Below, one piece after another: positions 10,035 through 18,390 of a stretch of 38,666 bases of DNA. The position numbers were made by a program, and so were the translations under genes. The notes beneath the pieces are model-generated. The model saw only the letters and a program-made list of their open reading frames with translations. It ran no database searches and was not told the DNA's origin. This DNA comes from a virus (lineage: Duplodnaviria > Caudoviricetes). Location of the stretch: positions 1 to 38,666 of the IMG/VR virus record IMGVR_UViG_3300028588_000048; one strand, written 5' to 3'. Every line of letters begins with the position of its first letter. Position 1 is the stretch's first letter.

Positions 10035-10208
10035 TTAGGAAGCGGTTCCGATGCGGGCGTCATACACGCAATCAAGAGGAATACAGGCTGCTTCTGCCAG
10101 CCCTTGAAGCGCCAGGATAGCGGCCAAGAACAGAGCAGCAACTACCCAGCGGTTAGATGCAATGCGCTTGATGAGCGGCTTGCGGGTGTAGATGCGGGAG
10201 TGGTTCAT
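10035..10208 (-). CDS. 57-aa membrane/secreted hypothetical protein (MNHSRIYTRKPLIKRIASNRWVVAALFLAAILALQGLAEAACIPLDCVYDARIGTAS)
   Basis: Hand-translated; ATGA coupling to the upstream gene. Confidence 0.55.
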   Translation of the reverse strand: MNHSRIYTRKPLIKRIASNRWVVAALFLAAILALQGLAEAACIPLDCVYDARIGTAS

Positions 10209-10366
10209 TTGAGCATATTGATTGTGGATGCTTCGATCATGGTAGGCTCCGAGCCGGCGATGATTTCCTTGAGGCGCTTCTGGCTGATTCCGCTCACTGC
10301 CGCTAGAACTGCAAGGCCACCACGCGCCTGCACATTTTTTAAGTCTTTACGGATTTGGTCGCTCAT
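10205..10366 (-). CDS. 53-aa Cro/XRE-like HTH protein (MSDQIRKDLKNVQARGGLAVLAAVSGISQKRLKEIIAGSEPTMIEASTINMLK)
   Basis: Hand-translated; AGGAGAG SD; LA..SGIS...L..I..G..PT HTH pattern. Confidence 0.6.
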   Translation of the reverse strand: MSDQIRKDLKNVQARGGLAVLAAVSGISQKRLKEIIAGSEPTMIEASTINMLK

Positions 10367-10381
10367 TCTTCTCTCCTAGTA

Positions 10382-10580
10382 GCGCCACACAGTGCAGCGC
10401 GGTTAGTCTTACTTCTTGTTGGCCGGGATCAGATTCCACCCCAGCATTTCCCGGATTTGCTCCGGTGTCGGAGGCGGCCCGCCTTCTGCTCGCCTGTTGA
10501 TCAAATACTGCTTCAACTGCACTTGCGTCGGGCGGGATGCGTTCATGTGATCCTCCGGTAGCGAGCTGCACAGTGCAGCG
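10382..10580. repeat. Two related palindromes sharing CACAGTGCAGCGC (10382-10400 and 10565-10580)
   Basis: GCTGCAC-A-GTGCAGC is perfect; GCGCCACAC-A-GTGCAGCGC has 2 mismatches. Each lies just upstream of an RBS. Confidence 0.7.
10409..10546 (-). CDS. 45-aa hypothetical protein, first gene of the leftward early operon
   Basis: GGAGG SD before MNASRPTQ...PPPTPEQIREMLGW. Confidence 0.65.
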   Translation of the reverse strand: MNASRPTQVQLKQYLINRRAEGGPPPTPEQIREMLGWNLIPANKK

Positions 10581-10591
10581 CCGATGACTGA

Positions 10592-10620
10592 ACTATGCCT
10601 GAACAAGAAACCTAAGTCAA
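10592..10620 (-). promoter_or_regulatory. Leftward early sigma70 promoter
   Basis: TTGACT-17 bp-CATAGT. Confidence 0.7.
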
Positions 10621-10655
10621 CATAAATCTTTAACGTCGCAGTTCATATATTTAGC

Positions 10656-10684
10656 TTGACATGGTTGTCGCTACAGGCGATGAT
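10656..10684 (+). promoter_or_regulatory. Rightward early sigma70 promoter
   Basis: TTGACA-17 bp-GATGAT, back-to-back with the leftward promoter across an AT-rich spacer. Confidence 0.6.
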
Positions 10685-10709
10685 ACGTTATCAAAACAAG
10701 GGAGTGGTT

Positions 10710-10928
10710 ATGAACAAAGAGGAAGTACAAGCTGAGCTTCGCGGCTACATCGGGCGAGTTCACAAGACTCAAACGGCAGCAGCCGCACACTGGGGCGTCA
10801 GCGTCGTTTGGGTCAACAAGGTACTCAACGGCCATCGCTCTCCAACGAAGCCGATGCTCGATGATATCGGCGTCGAGCGCGTTGAGCCACCATCGTTCTA
10901 CCGTCGCAAGAAGAGGGGCGCAGCATGA
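10710..10928 (+). CDS. Cro/XRE-like HTH transcriptional regulator
   Basis: TQTAAAAHWGVS..WVNKVLNGHRSPT HTH; AAGGGAG SD before ATG 10710. Confidence 0.75.
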   Translation: MNKEEVQAELRGYIGRVHKTQTAAAAHWGVSVVWVNKVLNGHRSPTKPMLDDIGVERVEPPSFYRRKKRGAA

Positions 10929-14922: not shown

Positions 14923-15099
14923 ATGACCGAACCGAAACAAAAGAAACCACGCGGCTTTGCCGCAATGACCGCAGAGCGCCGCAAGGAAGTAGCCGCTAAA
15001 GGTGGACACAGCGCCAGCGCAAAAGGGGTGGCACATCGCTTCACTAGCGAGGAAGCTAGGGCAGCGGGGAGTAAGCCTAGGCGCAAGAAGACCGACTAA
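14923..15099 (+). CDS. KGG-repeat general-stress-type protein (YciG/GsiB-like), 58 aa
   Basis: Hand-translated: RGFAAMTAERRKEVAAKGG...AHRFTSEEARAAG; AGGAG SD. Confidence 0.8.
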   Translation: MTEPKQKKPRGFAAMTAERRKEVAAKGGHSASAKGVAHRFTSEEARAAGSKPRRKKTD

Positions 15100-15120: not shown

Positions 15121-15477
15121 ATGAAACTAATCGTCATCATCGCAGCATTGGCACTCACCGGCTGCGCTAACCACACCCCGCGCCAGATCGTTGACATGCG
15201 CGGCGTGGATACTACGAAGTATTATCAGGACGTAGCTGAGTGCAATCAGTACGCCGAGCAGGTCGATACTGGTGGTAGTGCGGTCAACGGCGCAATCGGC
15301 GGGGCATTGCTCGGTGCGCTCATCGGCGCAGCTATCGGCGGCTCAGATGGCGCTAAGTTCGGCGCTAAAGTGTTCGGCGTGGCTGGCGCTGCTGAAGGCG
15401 CAGGATCGGCTGTGCAGGATAAGAAGACTATCGCCTTCCGCTGCATGGCTGGGCGTGGGTATAACGTGCTGCTGTGA
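15121..15477 (+). CDS. Glycine-zipper lipoprotein
   Basis: Lipobox LTGC; GAIGGALLGALIGAAIGG zipper; C-terminal CM.GRGY.VL. Confidence 0.85.
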   Translation: MKLIVIIAALALTGCANHTPRQIVDMRGVDTTKYYQDVAECNQYAEQVDTGGSAVNGAIGGALLGALIGAAIGGSDGAKFGAKVFGVAGAAEGAGSAVQDKKTIAFRCMAGRGYNVLL

Positions 15478-15484
15478 GGTGGGT

Positions 15485-15718
15485 ATGCGACTAATGCCGA
15501 CCATAATGCGCTGTATATTGTTCGCTTGCTTAGGGATAGCCCTAGCTCTCGCAGGCATCCAATTCTTTAGCCTGAAAGGCGCTGCGGTATGGGGGATTCT
15601 TCTGCTTCTAGCTCTTCTTGATGGCTATGATGGCATCCTGATTTATCGCAAAGGCCGATTGGATGGGGTAAAGTTTGCCGTCTATTTTATGTGGCTTGAC
15701 GGCTGGCGAAAATCCTAG
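15485..15718 (+). CDS. Small membrane protein
   Basis: GAGG SD, ATG 15485, two hydrophobic segments; converges on the spanin gene. Confidence 0.55.
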   Translation: MRLMPTIMRCILFACLGIALALAGIQFFSLKGAAVWGILLLLALLDGYDGILIYRKGRLDGVKFAVYFMWLDGWRKS

Positions 15719-16185
15719 CGCAGCGAATCATAAGCCTGATAGCACGCCCCCAGCGCTGCCCTCATTTCGTCGGCACGCTGGGCGAGGGCCACAAGATCGA
15801 CTCCAACTGAAGTAGATACGACTGACCCAGCGGAGTCTTGGCAATTGGAGGTGGAACCGGGCATTGCACTTCGACTGGTGGGCTTGCTGGCGGCTTGGTT
15901 GCGCAAGCGGGCAAGCAAAGCAGCGGCATCAGCATTAGCATTCGCGATAGCATTAGTTTTCTCCTGCTCGATTACGCCGACCTGTGCGGCTAGTTGTTGT
16001 TCACGGCTACGGGCTGTGCGTTCATCCTCGGATCGCTTGACCTCGCGCAGCCTGAGTTCTTCGGCGTGAGCAATGGCGATCTTGTCGAGCCTACCTTGCA
16101 TGATCTTGTGATCGACGTATGCGCCGCCAGCAAGGCCGATGACTAGTGCGCCGGCAGCAATCGGCCAAGTAGGTAGGATGCTCAT
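15715..16185 (-). CDS. i-spanin (Rz-like)
   Basis: N-terminal TM plus coiled coil, C-terminal A.RADE.R.AL..C..AY; follows the endolysin. Confidence 0.85.
   Translation of the reverse strand: MSILPTWPIAAGALVIGLAGGAYVDHKIMQGRLDKIAIAHAEELRLREVKRSEDERTARSREQQLAAQVGVIEQEKTNAIANANADAAALLARLRNQAASKPTSRSAMPGSTSNCQDSAGSVVSTSVGVDLVALAQRADEMRAALGACYQAYDSLR
15762..15953 (-). CDS. o-spanin (Rz1-like lipoprotein) embedded in the i-spanin gene
   Basis: Alternate frame; lipobox LPAC followed by a Pro-rich mature region. Confidence 0.8.
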   Translation of the reverse strand: MLSRMLMLMPLLCLPACATKPPASPPVEVQCPVPPPIAKTPLGQSYLLQLESILWPSPSVPTK

Positions 16186-16682
16186 AGCTTAAGCCCCACA
16201 GCAAGAGTAGCAGCGCCCCAATTAGCATTCCATTTCGAAGGATGGGGGAGCCCAGGTCGCCATGCATCAATGTACTGTTTCCATCCTTCTTCTGCAGTCT
16301 TAGGAAGCCCCTTAGGCAGCGTGAAGATCAACAGACGTGCAGCAGCAGCGGCAACGACATCGTTGTAACGTATCGCCTCCCAAATGCCTTGAGGCGTTGG
16401 CGTGACGTTATAGTCAACGCACAGCTTGCGCATACGTTCCGATGTGCTGCGATGGCTCAGGACGCCTTTGCAGCCGCCTCCCTGCTCGAACTGCCAGAAT
16501 GATGCAGCCGGCCCGTTCTCCGTTCCGCTGGCAGTAATCTGGCGGCGAGCCATCATCGCCGACTCTTGCAAAGCGATTGCCATCAGAAAGCGGCGCGCGT
16601 CTACGGTGTCAGCAATGCCTTGCAGCTCAAGTTCAGCGAGAGCGGGGGCGATGCCCGTTTTAATCAGCCGTTGTGGTGTCAT
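16182..16682 (-). CDS. Putative endolysin, lysozyme-like fold
   Basis: Between holin and spanins; AIALQES (candidate catalytic Glu) and AASFWQFE motifs. Confidence 0.7.
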   Translation of the reverse strand: MTPQRLIKTGIAPALAELELQGIADTVDARRFLMAIALQESAMMARRQITASGTENGPAASFWQFEQGGGCKGVLSHRSTSERMRKLCVDYNVTPTPQGIWEAIRYNDVVAAAAARLLIFTLPKGLPKTAEEGWKQYIDAWRPGLPHPSKWNANWGAATLAVGLKL

Positions 16683-16684
16683 AG

Positions 16685-17131
16685 TTACTCCGGTGTGCGG
16701 TTAGGTGGAGCATCAACATTACGCCCGAATGCCCGTTGTAGCCACGGCAGGAAGCCATCTGCAAGCGCCAGATCGAGAACCTTCGAACCACCGTAGCCAG
16801 CCATCGTAACGAGCGCAGCTTGGAGCCAGAAGTTGACACCATCCCACCAGCTCGTGAAGAAGAATACTAGCAGTCCAGCAGCAACAGATGCGACGATATC
16901 CTTACTGATCTCCAACACAAGATTGCGAACCACGATATCTGGCCGCGCCAGCTTGGTCAGTGTTCCAGCCGCTCCGCCCACGATAGACAGAGCGAATACA
17001 TAAAGAACTGCTGTTAGCGGAATAGACTCAATGCCCGCGACAAGTGGATGTTCAGCAGCGTACGCGACGGCGCTCCATTGAACAAGCAAGTAGGCCCAGA
17101 TGGCATATTTTAGCTGATAGCTCTTTGCCAC
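16685..17131 (-). CDS. Putative holin (LydA-like)
   Basis: Multiple TM helices, ALSIVGGAAG, ASVAAGLLVF, MAGYGGSKVLD; immediately upstream of the endolysin. Confidence 0.7.
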   Translation of the reverse strand: MAKSYQLKYAIWAYLLVQWSAVAYAAEHPLVAGIESIPLTAVLYVFALSIVGGAAGTLTKLARPDIVVRNLVLEISKDIVASVAAGLLVFFFTSWWDGVNFWLQAALVTMAGYGGSKVLDLALADGFLPWLQRAFGRNVDAPPNRTPE

Positions 17132-17562
17132 CCGAGGCTCCTTGATCTTTGTTTAGCGTCTAGAAATGCGATTACGATCGTCTGCGCGCTATTCCAGTAA
17201 AACCAGACCAGCAATGAAATCGTATGTCCACCACGCTCAGCTACATATGGTTGCGCGGCATAACAGAAGGCTAACGCAACGAAAAGGAAGTGTCTATACT
17301 GAAACGCTTTATTCCATGCAAGCTGAATAGAATGCTTGCCTAATTTTATTCTTTGTGGCGTCCAGTCGTTTATAAACACATCGAGGACAATAGCAATACC
17401 AACTATTGCCATAATCCAAATAAGTACGCCACCGTCCTGAGTTTGCGCGATCCTAGCCAATCTAGCGTATGGATCGCTGAATGAGTTGTACCAGGAGATG
17501 ATCGCGTCACCTCCTGCATACAGCCTCAGAAGAGGCATAGCGTGGTCATGTAGGCGCTGCAT
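17110..17562 (-). CDS. Multi-pass membrane protein, holin-associated
   Basis: 150 aa, 3-4 hydrophobic segments, overlaps both neighbours. Confidence 0.7.
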   Translation of the reverse strand: MQRLHDHAMPLLRLYAGGDAIISWYNSFSDPYARLARIAQTQDGGVLIWIMAIVGIAIVLDVFINDWTPQRIKLGKHSIQLAWNKAFQYRHFLFVALAFCYAAQPYVAERGGHTISLLVWFYWNSAQTIVIAFLDAKQRSRSLGWQRAIS

Positions 17563-17944
17563 CGCGGTTCCTTAAGTGCGGCATCAATACAGTAGATAGT
17601 GCCAGACATGCTGCGATGTGGGCGCATTCCAGTATCTTTACGATTACGCGATAAGGAGAAAGGGGAGGACTTCCGTCGAGAGACATGCCCATCACATGCG
17701 CAATGATGAGGGCAGCACAGATGTGCAGAGTCAGGCAAGAAGCGCGGGAGGGATAGAAGACAGCAACAACGGCAACCATAATCTCTAGCATGATGCAGTA
17801 GACATAGAAGCCGTAATAGCTATCCATCGGGATCGGATAGAAGATGTTGATACTAACGATCCCGATGAGCGCCAGCATGCGGCGATCCTTCAGGTTGAGG
17901 ACCGTAGCAACGGCCAGAAAGAAGCCGCATGCAAGCAGGTACAT
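17546..17944 (-). CDS. Highly hydrophobic multi-pass membrane protein
   Basis: 132 aa, ~5 hydrophobic segments; ATG overlaps the TAA of the upstream peptide (TAATG). Confidence 0.75.
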   Translation of the reverse strand: MYLLACGFFLAVATVLNLKDRRMLALIGIVSINIFYPIPMDSYYGFYVYCIMLEIMVAVVAVFYPSRASCLTLHICAALIIAHVMGMSLDGSPPLSPYRVIVKILECAHIAACLALSTVLMPHLRNRDAAPT

Positions 17945-18084
17945 TACGGCTTGTCCGGTGGCGGAGGATTGCCGTTGCCTGCGTCCGAAGGCGTGTTCTC
18001 TTGATCGTCCAGCGGCACTTCCGGCTGGCGCATTGGCTTGTCTTTCGGAGGCGGATTGCCGTTACCGGCGAAGAGTTTGCGCAT
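17944..18084 (-). CDS. 46-aa repeat peptide MRKLFAGNGNPPPKDKPMRQPEVPLDDQENTPSDAGNGNPPPPDKP
   Basis: Hand-translated; AAAGGA SD 6 nt upstream; duplicated motif with synonymous codon differences; coupled to the next gene. Confidence 0.75.
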   Translation of the reverse strand: MRKLFAGNGNPPPKDKPMRQPEVPLDDQENTPSDAGNGNPPPPDKP

Positions 18085-18120
18085 GGTGATTCCTTTGCGT
18101 ATTGGTTGGACTAGCACATG

Positions 18121-18390
18121 CTAGTTGCCGGATTGTACGGGTTGTTCAGGCTCAGGGTCAACTGGCGGGTCTTCTGGCTCAGTTGGAGGTTCGTACCCAG
18201 GCTGATAGCGCGGATCGAGAACAAAGCCTGTCATATCTTCGTTCAGCATATACATCGGCCACGATAACCGCATTTCATCGGAAACTTCTATCCGGCTTTC
18301 ATGACCAGCCGGAGGTATTTGCAAATATCCTCCAAGTAGCTCTCTGGTTTCCGGGTCAAAAAGTATATAAGAAATGTTTTGCATAATCAT
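18121..18390 (-). CDS. Small tail-fibre-associated protein with Pro/Glu-rich tail
   Basis: Coupled to the tail fibre gene; function inferred from position only. Confidence 0.6.
   Translation of the reverse strand: MIMQNISYILFDPETRELLGGYLQIPPAGHESRIEVSDEMRLSWPMYMLNEDMTGFVLDPRYQPGYEPPTEPEDPPVDPEPEQPVQSGN

Follow-up and report, generated by a model that had tools for sequence, protein, structure and literature searches.

What is the role of a small peptide gene that directly abuts a membrane protein gene at the start of a phage lysis block, and is such a pair found in more than one genome? This question is raised by IMG/VR record IMGVR_UViG_3300028588_000048, a 38.7-kb tailed-phage record that is ~90% complete and that was analysed over its whole length of 38,666 nucleotides (nt), referred to here as the window. 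A first-pass annotation of the sequence had drawn attention to a 46-amino-acid (aa) open reading frame (ORF) with a good Shine-Dalgarno (SD) sequence and two copies of a Gly/Pro-rich core, whose stop codon overlaps the start of a gene for a 132-aa membrane protein, and had proposed that these two constitute a signalling or lysis-control system. Its coordinates and motifs were all found to be correct on the minus strand (Table 1). Thus, the ORF is preceded by the SD sequence AAAGGA, the two cores are the sole occurrences of GNGNPP in the six frames of the window and differ at synonymous positions, and successive overlaps link the peptide gene to the 132-aa gene, this gene to a 150-aa gene and the latter to a holin-like gene. 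The analysis presented here establishes that this arrangement is conserved: directly adjoining each other, the peptide gene and the gene for the five-helix membrane protein recur together where the lysis genes of phages begin. As judged from the sequences, a signalling role of the pair is likely.

The main comparison proposed in the first-pass annotation was whether homologues of the 132-aa protein are preceded by a G-x-G/Pro peptide. For this we used 17 distinct loci (L numbers below) that were obtained blind to the peptide, in protein-first scans, and for which upstream DNA was present; L014, which has no upstream DNA, was left out. In all 17 an ORF of 16-46 aa containing a G-x-G-x-P-P core is located just upstream of the membrane gene, as had been anticipated. 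Together with the window and 13 loci from peptide-first DNA scans this gives 31 loci, or 28 clusters when the membrane proteins are grouped at 90% identity. At all 31 the distance between the peptide stop and the membrane gene start is -4 to +5 nt, and purine-rich SD-like stretches precede most of the homologous peptide ORFs. The presence of the core is beyond chance, because in 1306 background segments of 250 nt from the same loci the strict core pattern, which was widened after variants had been seen, did not occur (0/1306), and the loose pattern G.G.{1,2}PP occurred 11 times. In the peptide-first scans the membrane gene follows the core in 20 of 66 pattern matches, already known loci counted. 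The other 46 matches lie mostly within long ORFs or in unlikely frames, and include a few short ORFs (L021, L040) that are possible orphan peptides. The membrane protein has 30 close homologues and forms 90 clusters at 50% identity, the representatives of which are all 93-160 aa long with no longer fusion among them.

The genes that accompany the pair differ. In subfamily A (15 loci; L011 and L013 were placed here by similarity, as their contigs end early) the next genes encode the 150-aa protein and a LydA-like holin. In the 16 loci of subfamily B the next gene encodes a protein of 94-134 aa whose N-terminus forms a single hydrophobic helix and whose tail is charged; in L096 this gene is followed by a separate holin gene (phrog_1356). 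The 150-aa protein, earlier regarded as a component of the system, is not supported as an obligate part of it, another gene taking its place in 16 of the 31 loci. The two downstream layouts are clustered on the tree (2 changes versus 10.6 when shuffled), and upstream tail genes and endolysin sequences also vary between loci. Because the flanking upstream, downstream and endolysin genes differ, the fixed unit is made up of the peptide and the membrane protein. The linkage of this unit to lysis is strong.

No match was obtained in a single-protein search of viral contigs, in a search of genome contigs with the subfamily-A pattern, or in a tblastn search of 50,697 GenBank phages with five members of the 132-aa family and the 150-aa protein. 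The subfamily-B pattern identified, among genome contigs, one 39-kb contig in a Ramlibacter metagenome-assembled genome, on which the module is organised as in L045, plus a weak 24-residue match (L097); none of 400 further genomes sampled from the order of this Ramlibacter carries the membrane gene. No loci were recovered for a subfamily with a GPQPG loop, and ESM Atlas matches (0.89 or lower) are viral clusters without names.

Conservation of the peptide is confined to the core and the residue preceding it. The core is GNGNPP in most loci, variants being GNGDPP (L087, L091), GNGEPP (L086), GHGDPP (L008), GGGTPP (L094) and GGGKSPP (L095). It starts at residue offsets 3-37, that is near the N-terminus, mid-peptide or at the C-terminus, and its flanks are unrelated, which indicates that only the core is under selection. 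Since codons vary synonymously at every core position across the loci, selection acts on the amino acids, as the first-pass annotation had suggested from the two copies in the window. The residue at position -1 of the 34 cores is always small (A in 22, T in 8, V in 3 and S in 1), as expected of a cleavage site; PP or PPP is present in all 34, and the peptide contains 23% proline. Two features of the window peptide proved to be less general. Two cores are present in only three of the 31 loci (the window, L001 and L023), so that a two-core precursor is not the rule, and the acidic spacer noted in the window peptide is indeed there but is not shared generally, tails being either acidic or, in many peptides, Lys-rich. 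The reported absence of a Sec signal was borne out, as none of the 31 peptides contains a signal-peptide-like hydrophobic stretch (hydropathy over seven residues reaching 1.64 at most). This pattern would be that of a precursor from which a short unit starting with Gly is cut.

Some other features of the peptide sequences were recorded. In L002 and L013 the leader consists of successive X-Pro dipeptides and ends in Asp-Ala. Processing in a dipeptide register was discarded as a general rule because leader lengths are both odd and even, and was retained for these two loci only. A 145-aa ORF of no family (L093:2211-2648) ends in the peptide core and possibly represents a fusion of the signal to another protein. 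In small proteins that have no membrane partner (L040, L059, L079; core ~2501) GNGNPP is found after T, in frame and before a coiled-coil-like stretch, possibly as a fused or an unrelated use of the motif.

The AlphaFold2 model of the 132-aa protein has five helices (predicted local distance difference test score 85.8). Comparison of 111 sequences revealed that Y98 is invariant, that N17, P37, C50, E54, H83, E106, C113 and S117 are kept in at least 90%, and that Y47 is kept in 88%. Lys and Arg are enriched in loops 1-2 and 3-4 and at the C-terminus in 110 of the 111, from which the positive-inside rule predicts an N-out/C-in topology. Loops 2-3 and 4-5, P37, Y47, H83, Y98 and a G-x-P-P-x-S-P-Y loop are predicted to be on the periplasmic side, leaving N17 and S117 as the only conserved residues inside. 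Polar residues that are predicted to face outward fit the earlier suggestion that the peptide is a ligand and the membrane protein its receptor. As the topology is predicted to be outward and the peptides have no signal stretch, the sensor face and the peptide would be in different compartments. None of the 81 members of the family that were searched has a useful-level match in Pfam or PHROG, and PDB searches with the model gave generic bundles only (Foldseek best E 0.38; VIA-align best Z 10.8 with a root-mean-square deviation of 3.1 and 101 aligned, a designed helical bundle). We also observed that D-G-S-P-P in loop 4-5 of the 132-aa protein (17653-17676) resembles N-G-N-P-P of the peptide, so that a tethered mimic is possible; this loop is not kept in the most divergent members.

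The first-pass annotation did not mention a near-consensus sigma-70-like promoter, TTGACC-18-TACAAT, which is the best promoter site in the region from 15 to 19.5 kb of the window. No terminator-like site is present on the module strand between this promoter and the spanin genes. In 14 of the 15 subfamily-A loci, where the background is 0-2%, a 10/12 sigma-70-like match precedes the peptide ATG by 26-47 nt, and these matches occur in coding or intergenic DNA with unrelated upstream genes. In the window the promoter hexamers also code for protein, as they fall within the Pro/Glu-rich C-terminal tail encoded by the 89-aa gene upstream of the pair (18121-18170); this dual coding is likewise seen in L001 and L011. 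The inverted repeat previously assigned to 18111-18124 is present and extends to 18110-18125, folding as a hairpin of 6 bp with a 4-nt loop, but it is not a common element: among 12 folded leaders only L001 shares the hairpin, with one pair changed. A function as a shared operator was rejected, since the other 10 leaders do not have it. The leaders contain no conserved RNA structure (z -1.4) and gave no match in Rfam.

With respect to lifestyle, a tyrosine integrase was found in none of 21 related records (none of 17 near-complete ones) nor in the window's own record, an S24 repressor in none of 22 records, some of which are incomplete, and a resolvase domain in 2 of 22. The carriers look like mostly non-integrating phages. 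Because integrase and S24 repressor are not found and the resolvase is rare, a lysis-lysogeny switch is an unlikely output of the pair.

A search of viral models with Foldseek ranked fourth an uncharacterised 143-aa protein of Edwardsiella phage PEi21 (TM 0.68, probability 1.0, E 0.087). Its gene, which by length and context is ORF-50, is located beside endolysin and spanin genes and forms part of a unit, ORF-49/50/51, in which a 41-aa ORF containing the core GGRGKTR three times, in each case preceded by Asp-Ala, ends 2 nt before ORF-50 and an 89-aa holin-like gene follows it. Relatives were detected by tblastn in 77 and 91 phage records, and in eight of nine loci that were read a small upstream ORF contains Gly-Gly after Ala (PEi21, KpV52, Vibrio 367.14 and 97.13, Erwinia AnSW2-5-P-A with three cores, PEAT2, phiPLPE and VP16T). 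As the family was reached through the membrane fold alone, the Gly-after-Ala peptide found there bears out a prediction. Aligned positions keep Tyr, an acidic residue and Tyr at 47, 54 and 98. Of six look-alike proteins, four scored better than at least 198 of 200 shuffles and two did not, and in the reverse search 41 of 111 members of the 132-aa family scored above the shuffled 95th percentile. The units of PEi21, Klebsiella Jedunavirus, Vibrio VP16T and Iodobacter phiPLPE resemble the pair in gene order, Gly cores after Ala, repeats, predicted fold and charge pattern. They differ in that the cores are basic (G-G-x-G/K/R) without Pro-Pro, core type thus differing with the membrane family, in that Asp and Asn replace E54 and H83, and in being annotated as hypothetical only. 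We regard the look-alike family as a probable distant relative of the 132-aa family, the sequence support for homology being weak. Our broader and tentative proposal, for which the odds fall well short of even, is that the GNGNPP family and the GGxGKxR family of cultured phages may be dialects of one receptor superfamily, and that peptide communication which retimes lysis may be widespread among virulent Gram-negative phages.

In phiPLPE (L105, EU876853) a second GGQGK core after Ala is present around 740-856, in another frame and after seven A residues in the DNA, which may reflect a sequencing indel or slippage; the annotated gp66 and gp67 of this phage differ from the ORFs that we read as peptide and membrane genes. 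Further uncharacterised fold look-alikes are K4JPZ4 of Caulobacter phage phiCbK (TM 0.72) and A0A7G9VS16 of Rheinheimera barba phage.

How might the pair work? The reading that we prefer, with a probability of roughly 45%, is that lysis sets the peptide free, that trimming leaves it with Gly at its N-terminus, and that in infected cells nearby it is then bound by the membrane protein, with the effect of adjusting holin timing. Beyond the gene arrangement we infer all steps of this scheme. A host-type promoter would drive both genes during infection, and the peptide, having no signal sequence, would accumulate in the cytoplasm and exit only at burst. Release at lysis is favoured because the inner membrane separates the precursor from the pocket and lysis is the export route of every such phage. 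Host proteases, given their preferences, would cut after A, T, V or S and trim the tail to leave a short, Gly-started and Pro-protected peptide, extra cores giving more signal per precursor. This peptide would pass into the periplasm of infected neighbours and bind an outward pocket (Y47, E54, H83, Y98, E106), where its free N-terminal Gly could be held by E54 or E106. Porins have a size limit of ~600 Da; GNGNPP has a mass of 554 Da and the putative ligands range from 554 to 651 Da, so that the peptide would be small enough for porins. The sensor may then act on the product of the next membrane gene or on the holin, the most likely effect being a delay of lysis when many neighbours burst.

Several points weigh against release and sensing between cells. 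The topology derives from charge bias and a predicted model, and the conserved E54 and E106 are placed close to the middle of the membrane, where they might have a catalytic role. To cross the outer membrane the peptide would have to undergo trimming, which is an assumption, and a core shared unchanged by many divergent phages would hardly discriminate kin inside the family. L008 lacks the promoter match, as does subfamily B (0/16 at 10/12; 2/16 at 9/12), and the core of L046 ends either a 145-aa ORF or a 16-aa ORF with a weak SD. Concerning the cultured phages, the HHalign probability of homology to their family is 1-1.7%, which is not significant, 57 of 200 shuffles do as well as the PEi21 protein itself, H83 and E106 are not kept, and Vibrio phage CP-T1 has the look-alike membrane gene without the small ORF.

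Four other explanations have to be weighed against these data. The antitoxin-toxin-like gene order, the stop/start overlap and the shared promoter could reflect regulation within the same cell, the peptide binding the membrane protein either from the cytoplasm, to antagonise it as a toxic or antiholin-like factor, or from the outer face, as a reporter arriving there when the inner membrane begins to leak; no export signal is present and no uptake through the outer membrane would be required. This is nevertheless unlikely in our view, as the conserved residues are predicted outside except for N17 and S117, and the strict small residue before Gly and the repeated cores suit diffusible units better than a 1:1 antagonist. 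The membrane protein might instead be an AgrB-like processing enzyme or exporter that cuts between Ala and Gly, with the next gene product or a host protein as receptor. C50, E54, H83, Y98 and E106 in the membrane helices could form its active site, and the uniform -1 residue agrees with this possibility. We consider it quite unlikely, however: the 81 family members have no peptidase or transporter match in Pfam and the PDB no clear fold match, the next gene differs between the subfamilies while the core does not, the look-alike family has neither the His nor the second Glu, and the substrate would be cytoplasmic whereas the pocket is predicted to face outward.

The invariant tight coupling, the PP or PPP in every core and the high proline content would also be compatible with a leader ORF, the translation of which would govern, by polyproline pausing and coupling, how the membrane and lysis genes after it are expressed, and the product of which is no ligand. 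Such an explanation has little chance of being correct, because the core is found at widely different distances from the stop and in some loci in duplicate, both the -1 position and the residues ahead of the prolines are fixed, conserved RNA structure and Rfam matches are lacking, and cores of the look-alike family have no PP. Control based on coupling may still occur. A similarly small chance is given to an early superinfection-exclusion or membrane-protection cassette located beside the lysis genes by coincidence. Possession of its own host-type promoter, and the fact that the Jedunavirus-type unit is transcribed opposite to the endolysin gene, would fit such a cassette; yet the unit stays at the head of or next to the lysis genes across differing tail, holin and endolysin genes and in both families, and cargo cassettes usually move.

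Under the preferred reading of a lysis-released peptide, the likely output, density-responsive holin control with sensing on the periplasmic side, is like that of the RI/RIII-holin T system of T4 and of lysis inhibition (LIN) in N4, ICP1 and BSPM4. According to the respective sources, T4 lysis inhibition involves RI/RIII and holin T with periplasm-side sensing (PMC11413866, PMC8385771), its signal is superinfection and 'not peptide-based' (PMC13389391), lysis inhibition also occurs in N4 (bioRxiv 10.1101/2025.11.12.688109), and that of BSPM4 involves ORF52 (PMC11657625). T4 differs in that RI is a soluble periplasmic protein, whereas here a dedicated peptide gene is combined with a five-helix membrane protein of no known family, and the 81 members gave no PHROG or Pfam match that would indicate homology to T4 RI, RIII or T. 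The arbitrium system (AimP-AimR-AimX) is similar in that a short phage-encoded precursor lies beside its partner gene and in that the mature peptide has about six residues, a length that for the present pair we infer. AimP is secreted and AimR is a cytoplasmic tetratricopeptide repeat (TPR)/helix-turn-helix (HTH) regulator deciding between lysis and lysogeny in temperate Bacillales phages (PMC13389391). In contrast, the present peptide has no signal sequence, its partner is a membrane protein, and the phages bear spanins and mostly have no integration genes. Arbitrium receptors are of the RRNPP type (TPR plus HTH), but the adjoining gene here encodes a five-helix membrane protein without a Pfam match in any of the 81 members.

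Small precursors encoded beside a dedicated membrane protein are also a feature of the Agr system of Firmicutes (AgrD/AgrB/AgrC), to which the first-pass annotation had likened the layout. The likeness does not extend to membership of the Agr type. The core has no conserved ring-forming Cys or Ser, neither the 132-aa family nor the 150-aa protein matches the AgrB family in Pfam, and no AgrC family match was obtained. A histidine kinase or response regulator is not found in the loci, where small membrane and lysis genes are downstream, and the 90 cluster representatives contain no long fusion. Yeast alpha-factor and apidaecin are multi-core precursors with X-Ala/X-Pro spacers, eukaryotic and Sec-secreted; the repeated cores after Asp-Ala and the X-Pro leaders of L002 and L013 are alike, as a resemblance only. 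A literature search, outside of which lay subscription papers and bioRxiv supplements, yielded no description of the pair, and GNGNPP occurred in 0 papers.

The positions of the pair and of its neighbours are listed in Table 1.

Table 1. Features of the lysis block and its upstream region in the window (positions on the 38,666-nt stretch)
Feature	Position	Strand	Remarks
Upstream 89-aa gene, after tail fibre	18121..18390	-	Outside the module; unrelated genes in its place at most homologous loci
Sigma-70-like promoter TTGACC-18-TACAAT	18132..18161	-	Predicted; inside 3' end of 89-aa gene
5'-leader hairpin (inverted repeat of the first-pass annotation)	18110..18125	-	Holds stop codon of upstream gene
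SD sequence AAAGGA of peptide gene	18091..18096	-	From sequence
46-aa Pro/Gly-rich peptide gene, likely precursor	17944..18084	-	Stop overlaps next start
Core 1, GNGNPPP after Ala	18046..18066	-	Starts at 18066
Core 2, GNGNPPP after Asp-Ala	17959..17979	-	Starts at 17979
132-aa five-helix membrane protein, candidate peptide sensor	17546..17944	-	Predicted N-out/C-in
150-aa four-helix membrane protein	17110..17562	-	Third gene, subfamily A only; phrog_20672
LydA-like holin	16685..17131	-	PF16083, 36.1 bits (cut-off 28.4); phrog_6384, holin
Probable endolysin	16182..16682	-	Assigned by position, between holin and spanins; phrog_3108, function unknown, E 1.2e-29
Rz-like spanin	15715..16185	-	phrog_2466, E 2.9e-6
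Putative embedded Rz1-like lipoprotein ORF	15762..15953	-	Nested in Rz; lipobox-like Cys

The minus strand of the window carries terminase, portal, capsid, tape measure and tail fibre genes and then the lysis block, in the order tail fibre, 89-aa gene, peptide, 132-aa gene, 150-aa gene, LydA-like holin, probable endolysin and Rz with the nested Rz1-like ORF. Its recombination and replication genes are lambdoid-like. Spanins are a mark of phages of Gram-negative hosts, and their presence therefore points to such a host for the window phage. The PHROG match of the 150-aa protein is of unknown function (E 2.6e-10); this protein has 79 homologues, and its predicted fold matches an uncharacterised protein of Achromobacter phage phiAxp-2. 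The probable endolysin did not match any lysin family. The LydA-like holin has an N-terminal extension of ~26 residues ending in A-Y-A, which resembles a cleavable signal peptide and is kept in subfamily-A loci. On the plus strand, a glycine-zipper lipoprotein-like gene (15121-15477) with weak Pfam and PHROG matches is convergent on the lysis block, and a 58-aa ORF (14923-15099) has a weak match to the KGG stress repeat. A divergent region at 10205-10928 contains small HTH-like ORFs without S24 repressor or integrase, which is unusual beside lambdoid recombination genes.

In summary, the pair is a real, conserved and undescribed lysis-linked module that annotation has missed, and this holds even on the rival explanations. 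To our knowledge, phage peptide signalling is known only from temperate phages of Gram-positive hosts, in which it steers lysogeny, and we know of no dedicated peptide in lysis inhibition, which responds to superinfection. The proposal is directly testable, since the look-alike unit is present in dozens of cultured phages and the putative ligand would be a synthetic peptide of six or seven residues. If true, it would provide largely non-integrating phages of Gram-negative hosts with a new means of gauging how many neighbours they have.

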